DNA from: Trypanosoma brucei
Taxonomy: Eukaryota
DNA length: 64,000 nt
Assembly: GCA_000002445.1 (NCBI GenBank)
Contig: CM000208.1
Location: forward strand, 3,488,001 to 3,552,000
Direction of reading: 5' to 3'
Made by a program: the position numbers and the translations under genes. Shown in pieces: positions 5,831-64,000 of the stretch. Below the pieces are notes generated by a model that was given only the letters and a program-made list of their open reading frames with translations, made no database searches and was not told the origin of the DNA. Positions within the stretch are counted from its first letter, which is position 1, and each line of letters starts with the position of its first letter.

Positions 5831-7367
5831 TGTTGTTATTATTGTTGGGGCGCTTGGCCAGTGCACGAACTTCAGGAGAAATGACCTGATTGGTCTCATT
5901 GAGAAGTGGAATGAGATCATCCACAATGTTGCGGTTCTTCTCGTTAAAAAATGAAATGGCGACGCCCACTTTGCCAGCACGGCCTGTGCGGCCGATGCGA
6001 TGCACGTAATCGTCAATATTGCTCGGCATGTCATATTGGATCACAACCCCGACATTGGGGATGTCGAGTCCGCGAGAAGCTACGTCTGTTGCGACAAGAA
6101 CTTGACAAGCGCCTGACTTAAACAGCCTGAGAGCCTCTTCGCGCTCACGCTGCACACGATCGCCGTGGATAGAAACGCACGCCAACTCGCTATTGCGCAG
6201 GAAACGCTCCAAATAATCGGCATCACGCTTCTTTTCGACAAAAACGAGAACAAGCTTGCCTTCATTTTCACGAAGTAACGTGAGTAGCGCCTGACGCTTG
6301 TCCGGGTCCTCAATCCAGCGAACGTCCTGAGTGATATTCTCCGTTGTGGAGCCCACGCGTCCAACCTGAAGGAACGAGTGGCGGCACATAAACTCCCTGG
6401 CGAGCCGCTGAATCTCAACGGGAAAAGTGGCAGAATAGAGCAGAGTTTGGCGCTGACCTGCCCTTGGCATATCACTGTCTGGACCTTGAACAATCATCCG
6501 AATTTGCGGTTCAAATCCCATATCCAGCATTCGATCAGCTTCATCCAATATCAGGAAGCGGATTTCAGAGAAGCGGACGTATCCACGAGAGAACATATCC
6601 ATAAGTCGTCCAGGGGTCGCAACAAGCAATTTACACCCGCGGGAGAGCTCATGTACCTGGTGGCGTGGATCAGCACCGCCATAGACGACTACACAGCGGA
6701 CAGGCGTATGGTAGGTGAACTTGCGGGCTTCTCCATAGATCTGAAGGGAAAGCTCCCTCGTTGGTGCAAGGATAAGGGCTTGGGGGCTGGAGTGGCTGCC
6801 CGGGCTGTACGGAGGGCGGTTCGAAATATTCAACAGTATCTCGTTGATAGCAGGAATAAGGTACGAAGCTGTTTTCCCCGAACCAGTTTGTGCACACGCC
6901 ATAAGATCCCGATGATTGAGCGCTGTTGGAATACCCAAGCTCTGCACAGGCGTTGGCTTGGTGTACCCACAGCGTTTCACATTTTCCAGCAGCACCGGAA
7001 CCATGTTCATTTCACTGAACGATAACACTGGCGCAATGTCGTTTGGCGTGATAGTCATATTCACCTCTCCGTGTTGGTCAAAGTTGATGCCCGGAGTGTG
7101 ATCCTTAAATATGTCCTCATCGGCTGGCTCCTCACGGTGGTAGCCATGGCCGGAGGTTTCCCCTTGGTACGGCACGTTGCGACGGATAAATTCGCCACGA
7201 CCACGGGAGGGGCCATCAAAACCTTCGCGCGGCCTTTGCTGATAACCACCATAGTTGTTGTACCCAACCTGGTGGCCGGCTTCGCCAAATGCTGGGGCGC
7301 GTGCCCACGGGTTGGCGTTGGGGTTGAACTGCTGATGGCCGCCCTGGCCGAAATTCATGCCGTGCAT
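5511..7367 (-). CDS. ATP-dependent DEAD-box RNA helicase of the DDX3/Ded1 family (HEL67-like) with a C-terminal Gly/Arg-rich RGG/GYRGG repeat tail
   Basis: Translation contains AQTGSGKT (motif I), PTRELSLQI, DEAD, SAT and HRIGRTGR motifs. The C-terminal roughly 100 aa are GGRGG/GYRGG repeats. The ORF track starts at a non-ATG codon. The first in-frame ATG (MHGMNFGQGG...) is at 7367, read as cat at 7365-7367. Confidence 0.85.
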   Translation of the reverse strand: MHGMNFGQGGHQQFNPNANPWARAPAFGEAGHQVGYNNYGGYQQRPREGFDGPSRGRGEFIRRNVPYQGETSGHGYHREEPADEDIFKDHTPGINFDQHGEVNMTITPNDIAPVLSFSEMNMVPVLLENVKRCGYTKPTPVQSLGIPTALNHRDLMACAQTGSGKTASYLIPAINEILLNISNRPPYSPGSHSSPQALILAPTRELSLQIYGEARKFTYHTPVRCVVVYGGADPRHQVHELSRGCKLLVATPGRLMDMFSRGYVRFSEIRFLILDEADRMLDMGFEPQIRMIVQGPDSDMPRAGQRQTLLYSATFPVEIQRLAREFMCRHSFLQVGRVGSTTENITQDVRWIEDPDKRQALLTLLRENEGKLVLVFVEKKRDADYLERFLRNSELACVSIHGDRVQREREEALRLFKSGACQVLVATDVASRGLDIPNVGVVIQYDMPSNIDDYVHRIGRTGRAGKVGVAISFFNEKNRNIVDDLIPLLNETNQVISPEVRALAKRPNNNNNNNNRGGGGGGYRGFGRGGNSGGFGMGGGRGGGGGGGGYRGGRGGNSGGFGMSNVFGRGGNSGGFGMGGGRGGGGGGGGGGFGSGGFGASGGNMRGMFGGGGGGPTM

Positions 7368-8811
7368 TTTCAAATATCTTTTTTTTTTTGTGAGGGGCAA
7401 GATGGGTGCACAAGGTGGTGAAAGACGTGTCAAAGATTTAAAGCAAACAAGTAACGCTCGTGTAAAGAAGGACAGAGGACAAACAGTTAGCATAAACACG
7501 AAAACGGAGCAAAAAAGCAGCGGACCAAAGCATGGATACGCATGTGAGCAGTACGCAAAACAAAACAAAAAGGAATAAAAAATAGATCACGTTAAAAAAG
7601 CATTGAGGTGATCACACGAATGGCTTGGGCTCACCTCAAACAATACTCACATCACTCACGAACACATAATTCGATGTTGGTGTGCCTCATCCAACGTTCC
7701 CTTGAGTGTTTTTGCACACAATATTCAGTGGAAGGGAAAAGTAACAAGATGTAGCAGCAAAGGGGGAAAACAATGGAATACAACAAAACAAAGTAAGCAA
7801 TATAACAAGCTTCAACGGCCCAACATTACACAAAACATGTTTTGCAACCACGTCACTGCACAAAAGCCTCAATCTTTTTTTCCCCACCACCACCAGCATA
7901 AATAAGGGGTCTCATATAATATGCCTGAGATAACCTCTTTTCCTCACAGCAACAGCCCAGTAATTGCATCACCCCACCCCCACCCGTTAAAAATAAAAAA
8001 ATAAAAAGGACAAGGGCAACACCATCGCGTTTGTTTTTGGAACAAATTATGCACGTCCGCGCGCGGATGTACGCACGGAAACTAACAATGAAACTAAACC
8101 TTATGTCTCTCAGCCTCCCGTGAGAATATACGCTGCGTACACTTACACAGAAATTCGGTGAGGCCACGGCAGTGCAAGTAGTCCGCTTTGTAATGGGGCA
8201 CAACATCAGTGACAACTCTTTGGCACGAATTGCAGTGTTGCCTGAGGAAAGAAATCGAGAAAAAAAAGTGTTTACACTTTGATCCTTCCGTCAATATCGT
8301 AAGGTTGCAGCATAAACCCTCCATGCTGTTCATATCTCAGTGCAAGCGCAGATGCAACAGCCGCCGTTCACTATTCCACGGATGGCATAATCATCGGCGG
8401 CATTAAGTTCCTGTCTGTCCTTACCTACAAATAATGATCTCAACAATAAACAAATAGCAAATACACGAAGGAAAAACAAAACGCAGGAGAAGGACACATG
8501 TGAAATGTTACAAGTGAGGCCGACGAAACCTCCGAAACCACAGGTTACACCACTTCTGCGCGGCGAATCCAAACATGCAGAACAACCTACACATTACATA
8601 TCCCTCATTCTTTTCTAGTTCCCACAAGAATCCTTCCCACAACGCACGTAAACGAACTCCACCACAGGTGGTAAACACGTGGCAGTATAACGGACGCTGA
8701 GGAAGTAAAAAAAAAAAAATGTACATATATTGGTCTGTATAGATATGTTTGCGTACGCATAAATTAATACAAGGAAGCGTCTTACACCGGGGTCGATTCA
8801 CTGCCTCCGCC

Positions 8812-10821
8812 TTATCTCCGTTTAACCTTCTTTCCGCTTCTTGTCAACATGAGGTCCTCCCGCAGCCGTTCCACATCGGTCCTGTACGGCTCCCAGAGTT
8901 CCATGAATTCGTATTGGAGAGAAGAGAAGACGGTTGGCTCAAGCGCACGCAGCCCCTGGAAATGTGATTCCACCATTTGATAACCGACAGCCGGAACGGC
9001 AACCAACGGCTTCTCGGCCTCTTTCTTATCGGTAGTTTTTGCCTTCTTGGGTTCTGCCGCCACGGGGGCCACTGGTTTTTCTCGTGCTTCATACGACACC
9101 TTGAACATCTCTTCATTCACTGGGTGTTTGGAAATTACGACATGTGCGATGGAGATGGTCATTTTCGTCAGCAGATCCGTCTCTGTGGCCGCTGCAAACG
9201 ACACCACGGCTGAGGAGGTGGTTCTCTTCCTTCGTTTTGAGCTTTTTGGAAGAGGTTCACGGGGTTTCCAACCACGAACAACAGCACGTGAAAAGAAATT
9301 GGCCGCAACGTCAAACTTCCTCTCCTCAAATGCACCATCGGCCAAGATCAACATCGCTTCCGTAATGCTCTCAGGCGGAATCGATGGTCCCTGAGGAGAG
9401 GAAAGAGATACCTCTACAAACTTTTCGTAATCACGCAGCGCCGCTGCACGATCCTCGTGTGAATTTGATGGATACCTTTCACTGCGCTGGTAGAACGCGT
9501 TGGCTCGTTGCAGGTACGCCATAGCTCTGCAATAATGTTCCCCATGCATACTTAACAGAAGTGATAAGTCTACAATCGCATTATTGAAATTCTCCAGCTT
9601 CGATGCGTACACAGAAGCACGGCGCAAAAGCGTTTGTTGCCGCTCCAGCGCCGTCTGCCGGCGATCGAGGGCTTTAGAAAGTTCCTCCAACTCCGACTGC
9701 GTATCATTCATCATAGCACACACATCGGCTGCACGAAAGTGATACCTTGCGCAGTTGCTGCGCAGATGCTGAAGATTGCGAAGGTTCTCAAGAGCCAGCG
9801 GCACATCACCTGCTGCAATGGCACCTTCGGCGGCCTCCTCGAAGGCATTTACGTATTCTACATTTGAGGCAGCCAGTTTGTAGAACTCGCGCGCCTGCCT
9901 CATCCGCTCGTCTGCTACGCTACAACACACGTGCACTTTTTCAGGGGAAGATTCGGCCGAAGCTTGTGAAAGTGACTCCTCTGCCTGCCGGTCCCTCACA
10001 AGACCCAAACAATAATACGCATGAGACTCATAAAAACTTGGTGAATCAAAGAATTTTGGACTCTTCGATGAAGGGGAAAGTATGGTAGAGTTTGACTCCT
10101 TTGCAAACCGCAACAACTCACGCAAGTGGTGTTCGGCACCCTCATAATGACCTGCCTTCAGAGCACATTGACCGGTGTGAGCCAGCATGGCCATGCTGGG
10201 CTCGTTAATGAAAAGGTACTTTTTGTACTCGTTGTACGCGTCGTTGTAATTTCCTAGATGTTCTTGACAGGAGGCTCGCAAGGCATATGTGGCCGATGTG
10301 AGAGGATCTAAACGGCTGCTTAGTAGAAAGAAATTGAGGGCCTTCTGGTAGTCGCTCTGCCGCATCGCTACCTTCCCTAAGCGAGAGAGAATCCCCGCAA
10401 CACAACTGTGGTTCTGCTCCGCCATGCCTTCGGGTACAATTGCTCCGCTTTGAGTGTCACCCACTGGATGGTTTCCACCCCGCTGCAACTGCTCTAAAGC
10501 AATCTGCAGGTAATTGTTCGCTTCGGTGAGTTTACCCTCATTCTCCAGTGCATCAGCACGGTCAATACACCATTGGACGGAAACTGCAAAATTCCACGCC
10601 GACGACGAGGCACCTTTAATGGTGGCTTCACGACGTGTGGCGAAAGGTACACCACACGTTCCACCGTAGCGGTCGGAGAAGGTGTGATACGCCGGGGGTT
10701 CCCGGCCGGACTCAACTACCGACCGATGGTACTCCTCAACAAGACGCCGCCTGAAAGCCGGGCAATCGTTTTTTGGCGGCACCACTTTGACGGCGGCGGC
10801 CTTTTTCTTTGAATCGCTCAT
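8812..10821 (-). CDS. TPR-repeat-containing hypothetical protein
   Basis: 669 aa ORF with an ATG start (cat at 10819-10821). Repeated 34-residue helical motifs with the A/Y/L spacing typical of TPR, for example ...YQKALNFFLLSSRLDP..., ...AYNEYKKYLFINEP.... Confidence 0.55.
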   Translation of the reverse strand: MSDSKKKAAAVKVVPPKNDCPAFRRRLVEEYHRSVVESGREPPAYHTFSDRYGGTCGVPFATRREATIKGASSSAWNFAVSVQWCIDRADALENEGKLTEANNYLQIALEQLQRGGNHPVGDTQSGAIVPEGMAEQNHSCVAGILSRLGKVAMRQSDYQKALNFFLLSSRLDPLTSATYALRASCQEHLGNYNDAYNEYKKYLFINEPSMAMLAHTGQCALKAGHYEGAEHHLRELLRFAKESNSTILSPSSKSPKFFDSPSFYESHAYYCLGLVRDRQAEESLSQASAESSPEKVHVCCSVADERMRQAREFYKLAASNVEYVNAFEEAAEGAIAAGDVPLALENLRNLQHLRSNCARYHFRAADVCAMMNDTQSELEELSKALDRRQTALERQQTLLRRASVYASKLENFNNAIVDLSLLLSMHGEHYCRAMAYLQRANAFYQRSERYPSNSHEDRAAALRDYEKFVEVSLSSPQGPSIPPESITEAMLILADGAFEERKFDVAANFFSRAVVRGWKPREPLPKSSKRRKRTTSSAVVSFAAATETDLLTKMTISIAHVVISKHPVNEEMFKVSYEAREKPVAPVAAEPKKAKTTDKKEAEKPLVAVPAVGYQMVESHFQGLRALEPTVFSSLQYEFMELWEPYRTDVERLREDLMLTRSGKKVKRR

Positions 10822-28511: not shown

Positions 28512-29435
28512 TCAATCGCGGAATACTGAGTCCAATGGGTTCGGTTCCGGCGCGGGATTTAGCGCCTTGTGAATCTTTGATTTCGCTTTAACGGCCTCGT
28601 TCATGTGTACCTTCTCCAGCCGCCGCGTCTTCCTGTCGCGACGCTGCTCCGTGGGGGTCCTGGCCAGCGCATTTTTCCAAATGACGTTCCCCTTGAAGCA
28701 CCCGTTGAATATGGACGTCGGCTCCAACGTAAAACGTGGTCCAATTTCCATCAATGACTTTGGCTCCGTGTCAATTATCTGGTAGTGACGGAACCATATG
28801 TGTCCATCAAGGTAGAAAAAGCACAAAATGTGGTCAACAAACGGCTTAGATCTTGGGTGATACCGTGGGGTATTGAATGTCATTTGGAGAAGCGACTTCA
28901 CGACCCGTAGGTGTGGTTGGGTCTCAAAATCCCTGTCAAAGTGGAGGAGCGGCCTACTATACTTCAAGCAGTTTCCAGCCATGCGTAGTTCATCTGCCGT
29001 GTGAACATTTGTTAATTGCATCTTCACACTGGGACCCCGCGGAGCCTGAGCAATCCAAAGGTAACTGATATCCTGGCGGTGAGCCTCAATAAAGAGTGAA
29101 CTATTGCACTGGTGAAGCTCGCAAAGTTCAATCACACTATCTCCTAGGCCACCAGTACGACCAAGCTTCGGGTGCTCCCGAGCGTGCGGCATTAAATTCC
29201 GAATGTCAAGAAGAAGATGGCGGTCTCGACTAGATATATTACGGGAGCCCAAAACTAGGCACTTCTGCCGGTTTGTCATCCGCTTATCCGTTGTTGCGCG
29301 TTTCAACTGCATTTCGCCGATCATTGACTCCTCCACCACACCCCTTTCCCCATGAACTTCTTGCTTTGTTTCCTGGGTCCCTCCATGTTCCTCACTTGAA
29401 TCGGCGAGCCGCTGACGTTTCTCCCTCTTAACCAT
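28512..29435 (-). CDS. Brix-domain ribosome-biogenesis protein (BRX1 / RPF / IMP4 family)
   Basis: 307 aa. ATG at 29433-29435. The Brix-domain core is RDRHLLLDIRNLMPHAREHPKL...SSLFIEAHRQDISYLWIAQAPRGPSVKMQLTNVHT...RPLLHFDRDFETQPHLRVVKSLLQMTF...HILCFFYLDGHIWFRHYQI. Basic N- and C-terminal extensions. Confidence 0.75.
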   Translation of the reverse strand: MVKREKRQRLADSSEEHGGTQETKQEVHGERGVVEESMIGEMQLKRATTDKRMTNRQKCLVLGSRNISSRDRHLLLDIRNLMPHAREHPKLGRTGGLGDSVIELCELHQCNSSLFIEAHRQDISYLWIAQAPRGPSVKMQLTNVHTADELRMAGNCLKYSRPLLHFDRDFETQPHLRVVKSLLQMTFNTPRYHPRSKPFVDHILCFFYLDGHIWFRHYQIIDTEPKSLMEIGPRFTLEPTSIFNGCFKGNVIWKNALARTPTEQRRDRKTRRLEKVHMNEAVKAKSKIHKALNPAPEPNPLDSVFRD

Positions 29436-51756: not shown

Positions 51757-52239
51757 TCACTTCTTCGGCTGGGGTTTCGCGGATCCAAACGGTTGTCCGG
51801 CCTTCACTCCGCGGAGATGGATTCCAAACGCCCGTTCCATCTTCACAAGGACGCGCTCCTCAGGCACAGCCTTACCGTTTTCGTACTCAGTCACCACACC
51901 CACTCGCTCAGCGATTTGTTGTGCGAGCATCTGTTGGGTCCATCCTTTCGCTTGGCGTGCCTTCTGGATTGCTAGGCGAAGTCCATTGTCCACACGCTTC
52001 ACCTTCAGTGTCTCGGTATCCTCATCCAACCGTTTTGCGTTTGCACCTGGTCCTCCTTTCTGCACGTTGGAGCGGAAATGCTCCTTCTTGATTACCTCCA
52101 CATTGCCACCCCTCTGCAGTGCTCGGTTCGCCTCCGCTTCACTTACACGAGTCGGCCTCTGCTGAGTGTTTTTCCTGTTGTGGATGTTAAACACTTGCGG
52201 CTCCCAGTCCTGGCCCGTCATGATTTGACCGCGAGCCAT
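51757..52239 (-). CDS. MBF1: multiprotein bridging factor 1 (MBF1), with an HTH_3 domain
   Basis: 160 aa. AKGWTQQMLAQQIAERVGVVTEYENGKAVPEERVLVKMERAFGIHLRG is the MBF1 helix-turn-helix. An MBF1 N-terminal domain precedes it. ATG at 52237-52239. Confidence 0.8.
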   Translation of the reverse strand: MARGQIMTGQDWEPQVFNIHNRKNTQQRPTRVSEAEANRALQRGGNVEVIKKEHFRSNVQKGGPGANAKRLDEDTETLKVKRVDNGLRLAIQKARQAKGWTQQMLAQQIAERVGVVTEYENGKAVPEERVLVKMERAFGIHLRGVKAGQPFGSAKPQPKK

Positions 52240-52894
52240 CTTTTAGCTTAACACTATAATTAAGAAAGACCCCTTCACTTTTCTAATTAGTGCTGCGTAT
52301 TTTAAAAGCGAAAAAATTAAAAATTAAAGAGGTTAAAGATGTGGCAGGGACGGTAACTGACGACGAGACAAAAAAAAGAAAAAAAAAGACTCGCACAGCT
52401 ACTGCACCCACGAAACCTTTAAAAAACATTCGTAAACAGAGCGTTAAACGCCACACGCACTAACGTAGGGCAGCATACATCAATTGCTAATTATCATTTA
52501 AGTGAACGACAAAAAACAATGAATCGCTAAAACATTATCCCCCATAAATCGGGAGTAACAAATAAAAACCAGCAACGGCACATTCTATTCCTAACATTCA
52601 ACAATAGTGTCCATGCATACACTTCAAACTGCAAGACTACTACTTACCTACGCTAAAGAATTAAAACAAACGTCACCGTGCTAACAGAAATTAATATGCA
52701 TCAAAGCCACTTCCACAGTTTGCGCTCGTTGCCGCTCATGATAATCGTGACCTTCTTGGCCTTTGCCCTATTTTTTTTCTCTTAAAACAAACATATATCT
52801 CATCAAAGGCAGGTTCCCCCGCGCGCACTGCGTCCGTGATCCCGCACCCTACTGAAAACAGAAGATGACGGTACAACGTACCTCAATGAAATCA

Positions 52895-53818
52895 CTAATT
52901 CGATCTGCGCCACTCCACATAAATGGGTTTCAGCGCATCCACGCCGGAAAGTACACCAGCGCCAGCGATACCGCGTAGGATGTTTGCACCAGCGCCTCGC
53001 ATCAGGGACGCAGCTCCCTCCTGTTTAATCACCTGCAACATACAATCCATCGAGTTCTTGTACTTCACAGCAGCACCTGATGTCATCATCATGCGCCGGC
53101 GAACGGTGTCCAACGGGTAAGAAAGAAGCCCCGCCACAATAGTCACAGCCCATCCAAGGAAGAAGTTTACGATGAATGTGTCCACAGGAAGCATTGGCTG
53201 AAGGGTGTCGTAAAGACCAAAGTAGAAACCACGGTACACAACAATACCAATACAGGATACCACAAAGCCACGATACAACCCAGCGATGCCATCACTCTTC
53301 CATGTCTTGACATAGCAGTCCACAATACCGTTAAATTGGCGCTCCCCACCACCCTTCACAGACTTCGTGTCGTTAGCGAGACGGGTACGGACGTAGTCCA
53401 AGGAATACACAAAACAAAGAGATGCAGCACCAGCGAGACCACCAGATGCCATGTTACCCATAAACCACTTGCCATAGCCATCCTTCTCCTTTTTGTAATT
53501 GAACATCCTCTTAAATTTATCCTTAAAGGCGAAATTCAGCGCCTGAGTTGGAAAGTAACGCAGAACATTTGACAGGTTACCTCGCCAAAGCGGATACACG
53601 CCCTCCGTGCTGATGGTGCGCCGAAAGCAGTCAACGACACCGTTGTATGGCTTGTCCAGTCGGCCTTGCTTCATCATCTCTCCCTGGTTCTGTACGAGCA
53701 GTTTTACTCTTTCGATTGGAGCAGCCGCCGTCTTGGATAAACCGGCAGCGACACCACCAATCATAAACTCCTCAAGGAACCCAAGTTTGGGGGCCGGTTC
53801 CCGCTTTTTATCCGTCAT
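52895..53818 (-). CDS. mitochondrial ADP/ATP carrier (AAC, SLC25 family), tandem copy 1
   Basis: 307 aa with three mitochondrial-carrier repeats. The RRRMMM AAC signature (DTVRRRMMM), with [26 protein letters not shown] and GNMASGG. ATG at 53816-53818. Confidence 0.92.
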
Positions 53819-54274
53819 CCTGATAATGCAAAAAGGTGTGCGATACTTCCTGAGAGAAAAATATATATAGCAGTAAGGAATTATAATTCTTTTTTTTTTA
53901 CAAACTTTAAGAAATGCAAGGGATGGTTGGGAACATTGCCTAATCGAAAGTGCGTGCTAAATATAACGATCGAAAATTGCTCCGTCATAAAAAAGTAATT
54001 AAAACAAAAATAACAAATTTACCGAATGCCCCACGATGGTAACAGCCACACTGTACACCACGCGCTGTGCCCCGTTATTTCCCAGTGAGTTTCTACAGAT
54101 TGCGCTCGTTGCCGCTCATGATAATCGTGACCTTCTTGGCCTTTGCCCTATTTTTTTTCTCTTAAAACAAACATATATCTCATCAAAGGCAGGTTCCCCC
54201 GCGCGCACTGCGTCCGTGATCCCGCACCCTACTGAAAACAGAAGATGACGGTACAACGTACCTCAATGAAATCA

Positions 54275-55198
54275 CTAATTCGATCTGCGCCACTCCACAT
54301 AAATGGGTTTCAGCGCATCCACGCCGGAAAGTACACCAGCGCCAGCGATACCGCGTAGGATGTTTGCACCAGCGCCTCGCATCAGGGACGCAGCTCCCTC
54401 CTGTTTAATCACCTGCAACATACAATCCATCGAGTTCTTGTACTTCACAGCAGCACCTGATGTCATCATCATGCGCCGGCGAACGGTGTCCAACGGGTAA
54501 GAAAGAAGCCCCGCCACAATAGTCACAGCCCATCCAAGGAAGAAGTTTACGATGAATGTGTCCACAGGAAGCATTGGCTGAAGGGTGTCGTAAAGACCAA
54601 AGTAGAAACCACGGTACACAACAATACCAATACAGGATACCACAAAGCCACGATACAACCCAGCGATGCCATCACTCTTCCATGTCTTGACATAGCAGTC
54701 CACAATACCGTTAAATTGGCGCTCCCCACCACCCTTCACAGACTTCGTGTCGTTAGCGAGACGGGTACGGACGTAGTCCAAGGAATACACAAAACAAAGA
54801 GATGCAGCACCAGCGAGACCACCAGATGCCATGTTACCCATAAACCACTTGCCATAGCCATCCTTCTCCTTTTTGTAATTGAACATCCTCTTAAATTTAT
54901 CCTTAAAGGCGAAATTCAGCGCCTGAGTTGGAAAGTAACGCAGAACATTTGACAGGTTACCTCGCCAAAGCGGATACACGCCCTCCGTGCTGATGGTGCG
55001 CCGAAAGCAGTCAACGACACCGTTGTATGGCTTGTCCAGTCGGCCTTGCTTCATCATCTCTCCCTGGTTCTGTACGAGCAGTTTTACTCTTTCGATTGGA
55101 GCAGCCGCCGTCTTGGATAAACCGGCAGCGACACCACCAATCATAAACTCCTCAAGGAACCCAAGTTTGGGGGCCGGTTCCCGCTTTTTATCCGTCAT
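54275..55198 (-). CDS. mitochondrial ADP/ATP carrier, tandem copy 2 (identical)
   Basis: Identical 307 aa translation. Spaced exactly 1380 bp from copy 1. Confidence 0.92.
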
Positions 55199-55654
55199 CC
55201 TGATAATGCAAAAAGGTGTGCGATACTTCCTGAGAGAAAAATATATATAGCAGTAAGGAATTATAATTCTTTTTTTTTTACAAACTTTAAGAAATGCAAG
55301 GGATGGTTGGGAACATTGCCTAATCGAAAGTGCGTGCTAAATATAACGATCGAAAATTGCTCCGTCATAAAAAAGTAATTAAAACAAAAATAACAAATTT
55401 ACCGAATGCCCCACGATGGTAACAGCCACACTGTACACCACGCGCTGTGCCCCGTTATTTCCCAGTGAGTTTCTACAGATTGCGCTCGTTGCCGCTCATG
55501 ATAATCGTGACCTTCTTGGCCTTTGCCCTATTTTTTTTCTCTTAAAACAAACATATATCTCATCAAAGGCAGGTTCCCCCGCGCGCACTGCGTCCGTGAT
55601 CCCGCACCCTACTGAAAACAGAAGATGACGGTACAACGTACCTCAATGAAATCA

Positions 55655-56578
55655 CTAATTCGATCTGCGCCACTCCACATAAATGGGTTTCAGCGCATCC
55701 ACGCCGGAAAGTACACCAGCGCCAGCGATACCGCGTAGGATGTTTGCACCAGCGCCTCGCATCAGGGACGCAGCTCCCTCCTGTTTAATCACCTGCAACA
55801 TACAATCCATCGAGTTCTTGTACTTCACAGCAGCACCTGATGTCATCATCATGCGCCGGCGAACGGTGTCCAACGGGTAAGAAAGAAGCCCCGCCACAAT
55901 AGTCACAGCCCATCCAAGGAAGAAGTTTACGATGAATGTGTCCACAGGAAGCATTGGCTGAAGGGTGTCGTAAAGACCAAAGTAGAAACCACGGTACACA
56001 ACAATACCAATACAGGATACCACAAAGCCACGATACAACCCAGCGATGCCATCACTCTTCCATGTCTTGACATAGCAGTCCACAATACCGTTAAATTGGC
56101 GCTCCCCACCACCCTTCACAGACTTCGTGTCGTTAGCGAGACGGGTACGGACGTAGTCCAAGGAATACACAAAACAAAGAGATGCAGCACCAGCGAGACC
56201 ACCAGATGCCATGTTACCCATAAACCACTTGCCATAGCCATCCTTCTCCTTTTTGTAATTGAACATCCTCTTAAATTTATCCTTAAAGGCGAAATTCAGC
56301 GCCTGAGTTGGAAAGTAACGCAGAACATTTGACAGGTTACCTCGCCAAAGCGGATACACGCCCTCCGTGCTGATGGTGCGCCGAAAGCAGTCAACGACAC
56401 CGTTGTATGGCTTGTCCAGTCGGCCTTGCTTCATCATCTCTCCCTGGTTCTGTACGAGCAGTTTTACTCTTTCGATTGGAGCAGCCGCCGTCTTGGATAA
56501 ACCGGCAGCGACACCACCAATCATAAACTCCTCAAGGAACCCAAGTTTGGGGGCCGGTTCCCGCTTTTTATCCGTCAT
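55655..56578 (-). CDS. mitochondrial ADP/ATP carrier, tandem copy 3 (identical)
   Basis: Identical 307 aa translation. Spaced exactly 1380 bp from copy 2. Confidence 0.92.
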
Positions 56579-59500
56579 CCTGATAATGCAAAAAGGTGTG
56601 CGATACTTCCTGAGAGAAAAATATATATAGCAGTAAGGAATTATTTAGCAAAAAATAATTTTTTGCGGTGAGGGTTAATAGTTTAGTAGTTATCGATGAT
56701 GTACTTACAAAAATTCTTTATTATGCTAACATATCTATCTTTCTTTTTGGTGAAAGAAATTTAAGCAGTTATAATTGACTCATGTTGATTCCATATACCC
56801 TTCTTGACGCTGAGTGTTTTTTTAATTTCGTTTATCACCTTTTGCATCTTTTTTTCTTGTAGCCACGGGACACCACCAAAATATTCCTGTTATTACCATC
56901 AAAAGCATTGAGGAAGGACGAGTAATCTACACTATATATGCAAATCTTGGCTCAATGTTGTCATTAGTCATACGGTCCATATGCACCAGACGCGGCTAGT
57001 CGGGCCGAAAAATGCGTGCAATTTTCTCAACCAATCTTTCTGCACGTAGACGCATGCCCTTAAATGTTCGTATATTTACGTATACATGTATATTTGGGGC
57101 ACTTGATATTCGATGCGTTACAAGGAATTCCTTGTTTCCTCTCCGTTTAAATGCCTACGAGAAATGAAAAGTAGATTGGGGGAAATACACACAGCTGCTT
57201 TGCCTAAGTTTTGCCTTGTTTTTCTATATAGTCTAAACAACAATACTTTAATTCATGCCTAAATATCCATTTTTATGTACCTCATTGCAAAAGATGAATC
57301 AATCTGAAGAAAAATAATGTAAATATGAAAGGGATGTGAGAAACCACGCTGACACAGGAAAGTAACAAACAATTTAAGAGGAAGGCACCAAGTGCATGAG
57401 ATAAAATGTTTAGATATAATTTTATATCAAGATGGAGCACACATGCGCAAATGGCAACTACCTCGGTTGGTCAACAAAAACTCTCTTACGGAGAGTGGGC
57501 GACAGAAGTCACTTCTGAGAACCTGAAAACGGGTGAAACAATGCGAAATTGCGCTCATATATACAGTTCCGTGCTCATATGCATACGTTTAATACGTTAT
57601 TCGTTTTTCGTCTCGCTTGTTTTCCAAATTACCGGCACCTACGATGTGTATGAAAGAGAAAGTCAAAAGAACTAAGAAAGAAAAATCCGAAGATGGTCAA
57701 GAGTACTTCGGAATTAAAATCATCGCATAGCGAAACTCAAGCACTTCGGGACCCCCATTTAACAAAGTTCGTGTAGTTGGCCAAGCGACTATCTCAATTC
57801 TGACTATGCCTTCCATACAAATCGCCTTTAATTTTCTTTTCACCTTTTAATATGAAAGTTACCATCAATCTTAGATATAGCAGCATCAGCAGCAAACGGC
57901 ACGTCCAATATATCAAATGACCGATTATTTCTGTTGCACTTAAAATAAAGAACGTCAGTGGTTGTTTCAATCGCAGCAGGACAGATACACGTTTTCTGAC
58001 ACTAGAGCGTCCAGTGAATTAACTACTTCCACCACGCGTGCTTCATTGATCACGATTAGTTAAGTGTGTGTGGGAAAACGGTAACCTTAGGGTTCATGTC
58101 TCCGGTAGCTGAACCTCAAATTTTTCACTTATCACCCACTACACAACTTCACATTTTAAACATAGCCGGTGCTCGCAGAACTATTTCCGTGATCTTCTTT
58201 TTACTATTCTTTCCCTATCACATTGATTCGTAGAATGCGTTTAAGTCACCCCAATGAATAAACTCAAACCTTTCAAGTGTCTTAGAAACCGGAGAGGTGA
58301 TCTCACACCCACGACTACATCCCACTACAGGTGGGGAAATCCTCCTTTTAGGTGCATCTACAACAATCTGAAGATCCAAACCTACCCCCCCCCCCCAAGT
58401 AAAACCCTTATGTGACAAAAACAAGGTCCCTATACGCATCAGAAACTGCATAAACCAAACGATGTACCGCACAAGCTGAAAGTTCTAGCTTTGTACCGAT
58501 ATATCATCGTTACTGTTATAGCAATTAGATCCGTGAAAGAAGTTCAAACTGTATCGAGCGTCAAGAAGTAGCGTCCATAAATGGTAATTATAATAATATA
58601 CGGCCAGTTGTCACCGTGCGAAAACGCAACTCATATATTAGCACCGCTTCCAAGATGGAGATGGTCTGAACATGGGGAACGACCCTGACGGAAAGTATCG
58701 TGAGGTTCCAAAGCCCATCAGGGCTAAACCCCGCAGTCCATATACTCGACTCGGTCACGGGGGTGCATAACGAAATCAGCATCACCACCGTCCGCAACAA
58801 GAAACCCCTGCGGATACCTTTCACAGAGTAAATAAAATTCTCTAAACAAAATTACCTTAGGATGTTGTGTCACAAAAACAAACTAAACCCAGCATCCACT
58901 AGGCCTCTGCACCTTTTCCAGTAATATATCGGATGAATCGGAGCGCTGAGTCGAACGCGGTACTCTAGGTTAGGCATTTCATTTCCTCTCACGGTACCAA
59001 CGCCTCGCTTTTTTTTTATAATTCATTGCTTTGTGGCATGCGAGGCGTAAAGCTCAGCCGCCGCTCTCTTAGAAGCGGTCCTGCCTTCATTAAGACATTT
59101 GGTGTGTCAGCGACATTATCCGTGCTTCTTTCATTGTGAAATCTAACCGTAGTCATAGTAGCAGGCAAATGTCTTCCTCCATTGCCAACAGGACCTCCAT
59201 ATTTATTTTTTATTTAAAAGCCTTTAGTCTGTAAAGTTACGCTGAACTCCTGACAAACAGCAGCACAATGAGTATGATCTAACAATCCACTGGACAGAAC
59301 AGTGGCAGCACGCTCCACATGTCACTCATCGAACAATGACCGAATTTTCCATATTTCTATCTCCTCTAAATTCACATCACCGAGCTCATGTTTTTCTCAA
59401 GCATTACTCAACATGGAAACAAATCCGCTCCACACATCATTTTTTTCTGTTAACGGCGGCAAACAAGCGACAATGATTATTACCCGAAGTCGGTAGTAAA

Positions 59501-60117
59501 AGAGTGTCCATGGCCCTAACGCATAGCTTTTCATGCGACCATCCAGCCTTCCGTACCATAACTGATACCCTTCAGACACTCCAACGGCGATCGAGCACAA
59601 AACTATCCTTGTTCATGCTCCGACACGCATCCGCTGGCAATAACAACCAAATATCTTATTGATAAAACCAGAATTTCCATGAAAAAAGAGATAATCCATA
59701 GAGGAAAGTTGGTTCACCCACTGGCATCGCACTTTCAGATTTTGGTAGGTTGACGCAGTATTACTTCAAACAATCACCAATTCCCTGGACGATACATGCG
59801 TCATTACATTTTATTTTCGAAGTTCCCACATTGGTATAAAGCCACAGTTTTCATTGACCCACCGAACCGAGAAAGAAAATCATTTCGGTACCGCCTTAAC
59901 GATGAACGTTTTTCTCTTTTTTTTTTTTAGCAATGCCCGAAGAAACCTCACTCTTCTATACAGCATTGTTAGCTCCATAGCGGTCGATGAGACTGTGAAC
60001 GCAACGTTTCCCGTAAAGATATCGGCACACGTCCATTTAAAATAATATCAAGTCAGCAGCTGCTGCTGACACTTAAACTCCCGATTCCTTACAAAAAAAG
60101 AGAGGGAAAAGAGAAGT

Positions 60118-60234
<117 letters not shown>

Positions 60235-63200
60235 CCTCGAAAGTGATCACCAAATCGCCAACCCTAATTCCCCATATCCTGCCGGTCCCACGGCGCATCC
60301 GTTGGTTATGCCTCCCTACACACCTGACAAAAAGCAACCACATACCCCTCGAACTTCCTATCTTTGTAGTTTCATGAAGGTTTCCGACCTATCGCCACAG
60401 TTGTTTTACCCCGACCCCAACGAATTATCAACATTGCTGGTGGATCACCATTTTGAAGACTACCCATTCTCGCCGTGAAAGCAGTCCTAATTGTGGATAA
60501 AGCAAGAGAGGGCGCACACCCTGAACCCGCCGGTGACGTGCCTCGTCATGGCTAGCCCTCCCATACCAACGCAGAAACCACAACAGGGGCAGCCGACGCA
60601 TCGGCGCCCACTGAGGAGCGATGCGGCCGCACTGCCTGCTGCTCGTATTGGTCCTCATGAGATAATAAGAGCCACCCCTCCCCGCGCCCCAAAATCAGTC
60701 AGTACACGTGCCTTCGCATTGTTCAATGCAACGCCGCTAATTTAGGTGACGTGACCGCTGGTCCAACGCCCCTGTACAGTTATTCCCCCTCGGCAGTGCT
60801 TATCGCACCCTCGCGGGAGCTTCCCCACGCCGCCGCCGGCGAATGCATCCGGCAGCCCGGCTGTCAGTTGTAGCACGTACCAGAACGCGTTTTCAGTTTC
60901 GTTGCGGCACCATTTCTCCGCAGCACGTAGTGGAAGAAGTGGAAACTCCTCACGCCAGATCCCCTCCATGGCTACCCACGACCATTCCCTACATTGTCAG
61001 CATTTCTAGAGGTATTTTCCGCCTCCTAACCTGGCACTGCTTCTCCCCCATCGTCTTGTTTTCAGGTGATCGCATGCAACCACCCACCGGTTCATCCACT
61101 AGCGTTCTGTTGCAGCCCCTGGGGCGCCGTCGGGTTACCCAGCTCCGCACGGACGCGAAAAGAAACATGATGAAGGGGAGTGGGCGCGGCTCCTCGTCCT
61201 TTTGACGAGAGTACGCGCACTTGGCGGTACCATAACACTACTGGAAGACAATATGCAAACTGCCTCCAATCCCCTATATACCCGTATGATCCCCCCTTCA
61301 ACAACACACTGTCCACGAAAATATTTCAACTACTGGTAACTCAATGGGTGTGGTAACGTTTCATTGAAATCGCCGCACCGGCTTCATGATTCCGACAGCC
61401 TCCAGGAACTTATGCACCTCCTCTCCATGGAGTAAAAGGTCTGATTTAATTGCGCGATGTGAAACGTATGTTGGAAACAATAGTGTTGATGTGAATCTGT
61501 CTGGTGTCCGTGGTTCATCCGTGTGTCGGCCTCCTGCCCCTCAGCTCAAATCTCTCCCCTAAACACGCACTGTGATATGCTCCGTGGCGCCTCAGTGGAT
61601 TGACTATGTGCGTAAACGTTTATTGGCATATTATGTGTCACATATTACTTTCCATCAGTCCTTTAATCTTGACTTAGCATTAACGCTTGCTCATTCGGAG
61701 GAGCCGTATCGTTACAACGGTTCTGCCCCCACATTGTACAGTATCATGGTTTAACTTCCGTCTTGAGGTGAGTGAAAAGCACGTACCGAAGCTGGGCACA
61801 AAGATGCTGTATTAAATTTGTTTCTTCTACTTAACACTTTCTTTAGGGGAAACAATTCTATAAATAATCTCTGCTTTTGTTTGACACTCATTATAACACA
61901 ACGTCGCGAAGTTTCTGCCAGTTCCTACGCCGTGCATGGTGTGCATGATTCCTGGCAGTCAACACTGTGCACCCAATCCTATGACGTGGATGCTGCACTC
62001 CTGTGTTGCAGGCCGCTACGTTCATAGCGGGCGCCATCCTCGTTTATGCTCTATGATACGCCTGCGATGTTATAGCTCAGTTTTTGTGCAGCGGCGAGTG
62101 ACCAGCGGCCACTTTCCCACACATCCCGACTCTCCACGTCGATGCAGATTCTATCGCTATGTCGGCAACCTGAAGTCTATTTCCCCCTTTTCTGCATCTC
62201 GCGTGTCACCATTCCACGTACGTATTGAAACGTTACTTGGAGTACCTTTTGTGCTCCACCAATCTCCGCTCATTCTCCGCCAATGAGAAAGGTGAACGGG
62301 AGCTGCCTAGGGTGTTCCAGTAGCCTGATCACCGCCTTTGTTAGGTTAGATGAAACCAAGTGCTCCCGAAGCCGCAATACAACAATGTACAGACTTCGTG
62401 GTGTGTGAACAATGATGCTTTCTTTCTCTTGTCGCACCACCGGCGCCATGTTACACACAAAGAAACCGTGCTGGACGTTGGAGGTTCCATTTCCGCAGAC
62501 ATGTTAAAAAAGGGAAGGAACTTCATTTTAATTATTAACAAAGGGGTGCCGAGTGCCGTAACTTTTCCATGCCCTATGCTGAACTATCCATTTTTTGAGA
62601 GTGGCTCGTCTAAGCGAGCTGCTGCTCCTCGTTCTGTTGGGAAGGAGGCTGCGGAGAGGGTGGGCGCGTTGCCTCCATGAACTTTACGTATTTATTGCAC
62701 TGTCCTCTGCTTTGGTCCACTTTGTGAAATGCGTCTGAGGCACTCACCAACTCGTCGGTCGTCATATGTTCTCGCAGCGTTTTCTCTGCCATATCCTTCG
62801 GGGAGGCATTGCAGTGAGAGTGCCATGTGGGACGCGGGTCGGAGAAGTGGTTGATGTTGCGGAAGCCTTCGAAGTTATAGCGCAAATGCTCCTCTTCTCC
62901 TTTCGTGCGGCATGATTCTCACACTGAGGCTTCCACTAAGCAGGCTGCAACTCGTCTGCTGACTTTTTGGCTTATTCTTTTCCCATATTTCAGTGTTGAA
63001 GTGTCTCTCTTGCCGCCGTCGGGAATCGAGCACAGTCATATGAAGGCGCTTGCTTCGGCAGCCAAAGGTGGTTCCGTTCAGTATTTGTTTGTGGGGACAT
63101 TTGTCTTCCTTACCTTTTCGGCCACCTCTTTTCCCATGGAGTAAGGCCTCTGGTACTGTTCTGCCCGATAATCTTTGCCCCGTTCGTTCCATCATGAATA

Positions 63201-64000
63201 ATAGTTACAAAAGTGTGTGTCTGTACGGCAGCGGATATTTCTCCAGTCCCCAATCGCTTCGGTTGCTTTTACTCTTTTGAAGCACGGTTCGGAAAGCGGT
63301 AGCTCAGTGCACTTCCATGGAAATAGCGATCACAGACAGGATATCAGTTGTTTGTCTGAGCTGACGTGGGCATGAAACAGTATCATGTGCTGTCTTTTGT
63401 CGGCAGTGACCAAATGTGTCAAGGCGAGCCTCGGGGAATCGTTTTGCTGTTCCTGTTGTGGCTCCTACTTTCCGTGGGGAGGGTAAGCGGAAGCGAGCGT
63501 GTCAGTTCAAGGAATTGAAGAAGGTGCACTGTTACGCGGACAAATTCGCGTCCGGGAATACTCCAACTAACAACCACACACGCACACTGCTCTTCCACCT
63601 GAGGCTGTTACGCCAGTTCCCTTTCAAGTGGCGTTGAGCTGATCAACCTCTGCTGCAGACGAGAAATTGCTCTGAAACAAGGGGCAGGAGACGATCCTTT
63701 CCCTAACCGCCTGTCTCAAAGAGCGATTTGCCTTTCCGGAGGACCTAACCTCATTTCGCTCACTCTTTGGGAGATGAGTCGGGAGTCTGCCTTGGCACCA
63801 CCACTGCAAAGTAGTTTTGACGGGTCTTGCGTCGTCGATGGGTCCGCCTTCGCGTATCTGGAGTCCCTCCGAGGATTCCGCATGTCCGAGTGCAGGTCTG
63901 TGGCGCGCCCCAGGGCGAGTTCATGTGGTGGCGCTGCCGCTGAAGCCTAGTGTTGCTGCGGGTGGTTTGCAGGTGCTCAGTTTTCTTTTCCGGAGGGAGG

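Follow-up and report, generated by a model that had tools for sequence, protein, structure and literature searches.

The tandem gene arrays of Trypanosoma brucei, the argument that they serve gene dosage, and the concerted evolution of their copies have been surveyed previously (Jackson 2007, PMC1855330). Such arrays, among them those of the tubulins, histones, glycerol kinase and PGK, consist of same-strand, head-to-tail copies within a polycistronic unit. An array of this kind lies in the DNA analyzed here (hereafter "the window"), which comprises 64,000 nucleotides of T. brucei (assembly GCA_000002445.1, contig CM000208.1, positions 3,488,001 to 3,552,000). Three coding sequences (CDSs) for the mitochondrial ADP/ATP carrier (AAC) are found head to tail on one strand, at a spacing of 1380 bp and within one polycistronic unit. 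Homogenization of noncoding sequence and an abundant product, which are other traits of the surveyed arrays, also recur, and presumed processing signals in each unit and a copy number that may be unstable or is hard to assemble would be further likenesses (Jackson 2007, PMC1855330). The AAC array differs from them in being short, which places it outside the 47 arrays of at least four copies in that survey, and in being invariant, whereas most of the arrays surveyed contain variants (Jackson 2007, PMC1855330).

The locus is also known in its own right. It is TbAAC/TbMCP5 (Tb927.10.14820/-14830/-14840) on chromosome 10 of T. brucei TREU927, which was described earlier as three identical, consecutive genes, all of them deleted together (Taleva et al., PMC10593219). 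Knock-out phenotypes are reported in the same study, in which the deletion was made in another strain by using two cassettes (PMC10593219), and the same gene identifiers are used in PMC4340940. According to the passage of PMC4422618 that cites Pena-Diaz 2012, TbMCP5 works as an ADP/ATP carrier. The locus in the window and the published one are the same object, because the protein, the three consecutive genes, the neighbors (MBF1, a kinase and an M24 aminopeptidase) and the coordinates all agree, and no difference between them was found. The array, the function of its product and the gene identifiers are already annotated and published, and there is nothing new in the finding. With the product biochemically characterized and the whole array deleted experimentally, the locus has little weight as a discovery. 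What is added here is the extent of the array (2.85 units), the unit boundaries and a comparison between assemblies. Its interest is that of a clean textbook case, in which expression would be tuned by gene dosage in polycistronic units and concerted evolution would be visible at silent sites.

Our explanation, to which we assign a probability of about 0.92, is that the known TbAAC/TbMCP5 array provides dosage by repetition and that its copies are kept alike by concerted evolution. Identical genes for the ADP/ATP exchanger stand head to tail and open a polycistronic unit that RNA polymerase II (Pol II) transcribes on the minus strand. Because trypanosomes lack gene-specific Pol II promoters, repetition of the gene would multiply AAC pre-mRNA. 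Each 1380-bp unit would bring along a polypyrimidine tract and AG for addition of the spliced leader as well as a region for polyadenylation, so that every unit could yield an mRNA of its own, identical to the others. Unequal crossing-over, gene conversion or both would keep homogenizing the synonymous sites and the spacers. The same recombination would make the number of units unstable, and the identical repeats would hamper assembly of that number. The structure of the repeat, the identities of protein and locus, synteny, the contrast in identity within and between genomes, and the differing counts among assemblies are shown by the present analysis. We infer the splice acceptor, the mechanism of recombination and the selection for dosage; the exchange activity, the start of the transcription unit, the poly(A) sites and the mRNA abundance are taken from the literature.

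To measure the extent of the repeat, the window was matched against a copy of itself shifted by 1380 bp. No mismatch occurs across positions 52720-55264, and chance cannot account for an unbroken match of 2545 positions. Mismatches at this offset number two, at 52714 and 52719, and similarity is gone below 52711 and above 55264 (56644 after addition of 1380). A separate repeat search of the window also gave three copies, spaced 1380 and 1380 bp apart. Tandem Repeats Finder, which covers periods only up to 500, misses the array, and direct comparison at the offset was used instead. A preliminary description of this DNA had placed the tract at 52717-56643, which agrees to within a few bases with the boundaries in Table 1. 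It was also correct in giving a 1380-bp unit, a length of 307 amino acids, and three identical genes without substitutions. Its three-gene array stands as well, refined only by the minus-strand orientation of the genes and by the incomplete outer unit. It did not recognize the locus as one that is annotated and functionally studied. The array contains three CDSs and two complete 456-bp spacers, not three complete units. At its outer ends, it shares with the inner units only 66 bp 5' of the first ATG and 184 bp 3' of the last stop codon.

Table 1. Features of the AAC array and its surroundings (window coordinates; copies numbered in the direction of transcription).
Feature	Position	Strand	Remarks
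Whole tandem-repeat tract	52711-56644	minus	~3934 bp, 2.85 head-to-tail units of 1380 bp; perfect over 52720-56644
AAC copy 1 (first), 307 amino acids	55655-56578	minus	Tb10.61.1810 (GeneDB v4), presumably Tb927.10.14840
AAC copy 2, 307 amino acids	54275-55198	minus	Identical translation; Tb10.61.1820, presumably Tb927.10.14830
AAC copy 3 (last, next to MBF1), 307 amino acids	52895-53818	minus	Tb10.61.1830, presumably Tb927.10.14820
66-bp 5' segment common to the three copies	56579-56644, 55199-55264, 53819-53884	minus	Read from sequence
Complete 456-bp intergenic spacer	53819-54274 (copies 2/3), 55199-55654 (copies 1/2)	minus	Identical to each other by offset comparison
206-bp spacer-only segment	53885-54090, 55265-55470	minus	Present only between copies
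First 184 nt past the stop codon, common to the three copies	52711-52894, 54091-54274, 55471-55654	minus	
MBF1 (multiprotein bridging factor 1)	51757-52239	minus	Directly downstream of the array; Pfam MBF1 and HTH_3; exact match to EAN78847
7.4-kb stretch upstream of the array	56645-64000		Part of a divergent strand-switch region; lists of open reading frames, Kolev Table S14

The Tb10.61 identifiers in Table 1 were assigned to individual copies because three published poly(A) coordinates fit a single offset, 3,488,000. When the length of the 3' untranslated region (UTR) is added to the poly(A) coordinate (3540781 + 114 for copy 3 and 3541979 + 296 for copy 2), the resulting stop coordinates 3540895, 3542275 and 3543655 equal window positions 52895, 54275 and 55655 plus 3,488,000 (Kolev 2010 Table S13, PMC2936537). 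This fit identifies the window as 3,488,001-3,552,000 of TREU927 chromosome 10 (v4). The Tb927.10 identifiers of the individual copies follow from the order of numbering.

Judged by sequence, the product of the array is a canonical mitochondrial ADP/ATP carrier of the SLC25 family, in agreement with the preliminary description. It has three Mito_carr repeats, which match Pfam PF00153 at E = 5.9e-68 and score 225 bits (cut-off, 22.3). The ADP/ATP-carrier hallmark RRRMMM occupies residues 240-245 and aligns with the same motif of 6GCI. The carrier signature P-x-[DE]-x-x-[KR] appears as PIERVK at residue 34, SLDYVR at residue 139 and PLDTVR at residue 235, with S in place of P in repeat 2. Fungal AACs likewise have S in the signature of this repeat. 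Alignments to solved ADP/ATP carriers cover the full length of the protein; the matches are 6gci_A (E = 1.7e-132, residues 14-298), 4c9g_A (6.4e-126), 4c9j_A (8.4e-123) and 1okc_A (4.8e-91). These carriers (6GCI from Thermothelomyces thermophila, Aac2/Aac3 of yeast in 4C9G/4C9J, and bovine AAC1 in 1OKC) have the three repeats and RRRMMM in common with it. The AAC paralogs of yeast and mammals are dispersed, divergent in sequence and separately regulated, whereas the T. brucei copies are identical and adjacent.

The identity to TbMCP5/TbAAC is exact. The protein matches three consecutive accessions of T. brucei TREU927 (EAN78848, EAN78849 and EAN78850; UniProt Q388C4, Q388C4_TRYB2), and the identical sequence is also present in T. 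b. gambiense and T. equiperdum. The proteins of the four downstream genes are exact matches to EAN78844-EAN78847. An open reading frame (ORF) of 307 amino acids at 28512-29435 (minus strand) was considered as a dispersed fourth AAC copy and rejected, because it encodes an unrelated Brix-domain protein whose equal length is a coincidence. Antisense ORFs of 87 amino acids in each unit (for example, 53607-53870, plus strand) were taken as by-products of the repeat and not as genes. Scans of the window for tRNAs and Rfam families were empty.

Probable homogenization of the units

Within arrays, the CDSs hardly differ: there are no differences in the window and 0-1 in an array of eight copies in an assembly of T. 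b. equiperdum (GCA_003543875.1). Between the two arrays, the pattern is of another kind. All eight CDSs of the T. b. equiperdum array have the same eight synonymous differences from all three window copies (CDS positions 87, 267, 321, 603, 789, 810, 843 and 858), and the single copy of T. b. gambiense DAL972 has seven of these eight. The ends of the array, at -66 and +184 relative to the CDS, are the same in the three T. brucei-group assemblies.

Two observations concern the eight-copy array itself. Its first copy (locus L003, 8621-9544; protein RHW69368.1) carries G874A (Gly292Ser), which is the one substitution seen within an array and the sole non-synonymous difference in the T. brucei group. 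Its spacers have differences of 1-3 bases in A/G homopolymers, giving periods of 1380-1383, and these may be long-read errors.

T. vivax, T. theileri and Leishmania panamensis also have multiple copies at this site, where the order AAC, MBF1, protein kinase is as in T. brucei. In T. vivax, the array has a period of 1381 bp and contains four CDSs that do not differ from one another; with the spacers counted, its identity is 99.97%, and the spacer is unrelated in sequence to that of T. brucei. The two T. theileri copies are 99% identical and the two L. panamensis copies, which lie 9 kb apart, 99.8% identical; in both species, identity is confined to the CDS and the flanks are unrelated. Overall, CDS identity is 99-100% within species versus 71-83% between species, where third codon positions agree at 44-60%.

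Identity confined to the CDS and silent variants present throughout an array are the marks that gene conversion or unequal exchange would be expected to leave. Because strain-specific silent variants are fixed across arrays, and because old duplicates are identical over the CDS only, the comparison favors concerted evolution, in the form of repeated turnover of the array, over one recent burst. The preliminary description had offered recent amplification or ongoing concerted evolution as alternatives, and the eight fixed silent differences, together with the comparison of syntenic sites, favor the latter.

The T. vivax array (locus L006, 9958-15120) has boundaries of -43/+53 relative to the CDS, compared with -66/+184 in T. 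brucei. An ancestral unit shared by the two species was considered as the source of the periods of 1380 and 1381. The spacers of T. vivax and T. brucei show no likeness, aligning at 52% identity versus 51% for shuffled sequence, and nothing can be concluded about such a unit. The near-equal periods may be coincidental, or the length of the spacer may be constrained.

Number of units

The number of AAC copies varies with the assembly: one in T. b. gambiense DAL972, three in the window and eight in T. b. equiperdum GCA_003543875.1. In the short-read assembly GCA_001457755.2 of T. equiperdum, there is a lone contig of 1402 bp that is 100% identical to the window unit. The first 22 bases of this contig equal its last 22, and it thus represents one unit closed on itself, a form in which short-read assemblers leave collapsed tandem repeats.

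These counts bear on the alternative that survives best, in which the tandem array is real, "three" is a convention of the assembly, and the true TREU927 array is longer or shorter. We consider this a serious possibility, at somewhat less than even odds. Sanger reads of ~700 bases do not allow perfect repeats of 1380 bp to be counted, and the assemblies of close relatives contain one, three or eight copies or the self-overlapping contig. Against it, chromosome 10 of TREU927 was finished from large-insert clones, which constrain the length of the array. In addition, a later study of another strain handled the locus as three genes to be removed by a two-cassette deletion, although it gave no unit count (PMC10593219). 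The numbers of units in assembled arrays may nevertheless be collapsed or arbitrary (Jackson 2007, PMC1855330; T. b. gambiense genome paper), and a pair or triplet in an assembly may stand for a longer array (Jackson 2007, PMC1855330). This alternative concerns copy number only and is compatible with dosage by repetition and concerted evolution.

GCA_003543875.1 differs from TREU927 at about 0.9% of sites. Set beside the 100% identity of the T. equiperdum contig, this difference indicates that the two "equiperdum" genomes carry different AAC haplotypes. The monomorphic Trypanozoon are reportedly polyphyletic, and differing haplotypes are in line with this. The eight-copy assembly is that of a strain that we take to be IVM-t1; the IVM-t1 assembly was built from only 7,508 PacBio reads plus MiSeq data.

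In dyskinetoplastic or kinetoplast-impaired trypanosomes of the equiperdum/evansi type, the mitochondrial membrane potential derives from ATP hydrolysis by F1-ATPase combined with electrogenic ATP4-/ADP3- exchange by AAC (PMC4340940). The larger array of T. b. equiperdum (eight copies versus three) could accordingly be imagined as a biologic feature that was selected for in such trypanosomes. If so, the copy number of the AAC locus would have adapted these parasites to living with no functional proton-pumping Fo. We regard this as very improbable.

The preliminary description had expected copy number to be polymorphic and assembly-dependent. The second half of this expectation holds, given the counts of one, three and eight and the collapsed unit, whereas real polymorphism is inseparable from assembly effects in these data. 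For practical purposes, AAC copy number should not be read off assemblies. In expression and knock-out work, the three annotated genes have to be treated as one multi-mapping unit of uncertain length.

RNA processing, expression and gene dosage

Along the direction of transcription, a unit consists of the 66-bp 5' segment, a CDS of 924 bp and 390 bp of 3' sequence. Pyrimidines make up 79% of a 29-nt tract in the 66-bp segment, after which the first AG occurs at 56611/56610, 55231/55230 and 53851/53850 in copies 1, 2 and 3. Because trans-splicing in trypanosomes follows a polypyrimidine-AG rule, this AG is presumed to be the spliced-leader acceptor, a prediction under which the 5' UTR would be 31 nt. 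A blastn comparison of the 206-bp segment, which is confined to the spacers, with the array flanks and the rest of the window gave no match apart from its two copies in the spacers, and its origin was not found. Beyond the common 184 nt, the last copy continues into unique sequence toward MBF1.

A poly(A) site at +114 (window positions 52781, 54161 and 55541) falls inside the shared 184 nt (Kolev 2010 Table S13, PMC2936537). The predominant 3' UTR is 114 nt for Tb10.61.1830 and Tb10.61.1810 and 296 nt for Tb10.61.1820 (Kolev 2010 Table S13, PMC2936537), values that are ambiguous for each copy because reads in sequence common to the copies are unassignable to one of them. The predominant site of the middle copy corresponds to window position 53979, which lies in the spacer-only segment and 128 nt upstream of the next AG. 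In trypanosomes, polyadenylation is coupled to downstream trans-splicing, and the placement of the +296 site 128 nt before the next AG fits this coupling.

The array is the first coding sequence of its polycistronic transcription unit, as is evident from three lines of evidence. ORFs of at least 150 amino acids occur in the window on the minus strand only, in the interval 4531-56578, and none of this length lies in 56579-64000. The minus-strand Pol II unit "Tb10.61.1810 -> Tb10.61.2745" begins with copy 1 and is classed as Divergent (Kolev 2010 Table S14, PMC2936537). Finally, the next gene upstream of AAC in T. b. gambiense is on the opposite strand, 8.6 kb away.

In procyclic cells, AAC mRNA amounts to 47.2 molecules per cell, a figure that pools the three genes since their reads are indistinguishable. 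The median gene has 3, and 75% of genes have 1-10; pooled AAC mRNA is thus ~16 times that of the median gene. This abundance and the polycistronic mode of transcription agree with the earlier suggestion of selection for dosage, which is a suggestion still.

The copies might instead be functionally nonequivalent, giving rise to differently regulated mRNAs (stage-specific ones, for example) rather than to pure dosage. It is generally known that 3' UTRs are the main regulators of mRNA level in trypanosomes, and the copies do differ in this region. The last copy has its own distal 3' UTR, with only 184 nt shared past the stop codon, and the sequence upstream of the first copy is likewise unlike that of the others. 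Poly(A) sites also differ, in that the 296-nt 3' UTR of the middle copy ends within spacer-only sequence. For the last copy, the predominant 3' UTR of 114 nt contrasts with a mean of 261 nt and a dispersion of 147 (Kolev Table S13). However, the CDS, the presumed splice acceptor, the 5' UTR and the proximal 184 nt of the 3' UTR, including the +114 site, are identical in all copies. The per-copy values are subject to the ambiguity of read assignment noted above, and the literature examined contains no report of isoform-specific regulation. We consider differential regulation unlikely.

Less likely again is a single, very recent amplification in T. brucei without continuing homogenization, which would explain the absence of substitutions even in the spacers by lack of time to diverge and would fit the one copy at the syntenic position in T. 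cruzi, but which is opposed by uniform arrays of three and eight copies that differ at eight silent sites and so require homogenization or separate re-expansion after the strains split, by array ends that are the same in three assemblies, by a 206-bp spacer-only segment lacking the flank counterpart that a fresh simple duplication would keep, by the multiple copies that T. vivax, T. theileri and L. panamensis also have there, and by the CDS-only homogenization of the latter two, a signature of gene conversion.

None of the results contradicts the explanation by dosage and concerted evolution, and the points that weigh against it are limits on it. The splice acceptor of the AAC units is predicted rather than mapped. 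The benefit from dosage is deduced, and high mRNA abundance is consistent with repetition without proving it. The count of three in TREU927 comes solely from the assembly, and the differences in copy number between assemblies may be technical and not biologic, as method is confounded with strain. Duplication is not universal, because four assemblies of T. cruzi show only one copy at the syntenic position. The arrays could also have arisen by amplifications that took place independently in several lineages; these would be a form of the same turnover, from which they are inseparable here.

Neighboring genes and the strand-switch region

MBF1 is the syntenic neighbor of the AAC gene or genes in every trypanosomatid examined (loci L001-L012). 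On the other side of the array, the 7.4-kb stretch forms the minus-strand half of the divergent strand-switch region, and the content of G+C falls to about 37% at 56.5-57.5 kb. The poly(A) site of a novel transcript, Tb10.NT.162, is at chr10:3544859, that is, window position 56859, just upstream of AAC copy 1 (Kolev 2010, PMC2936537).

A run of 12 C residues on the plus strand (58385-58396), equivalent to 12 G residues on the sense strand of the AAC unit, is located ~1.8 kb upstream of the first AAC ATG. No other G/C homopolymer of at least 8 occurs in 56.6-64 kb. In trypanosomes, G-tracts are a described feature of Pol II start regions.

In T. cruzi and T. theileri, the gene immediately 5' of AAC is intact and encodes a protein of 735-746 amino acids (Pfam AttH and polyprenyl_synt). 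The gene or its counterpart spans 6370-8523 of locus L006 (T. vivax), 7140-9347 of locus L007 and 6897-9137 of locus L010. The T. vivax counterpart is spread over three reading frames, and the sole ORF called in it has 143 amino acids. In the T. brucei window, a faint AttH/polyprenyl_synt trace occurs at 59067-59684 (minus strand; 22% identity over 211 amino acids, E about 2e-5). This looks like decay of the gene in salivarian trypanosomes or, for T. vivax, sequencing frameshifts in the assembly. The strand-switch region also contains a compound microsatellite at 60118-60233, in which (TC)18 adjoins a perfect (TG)40.

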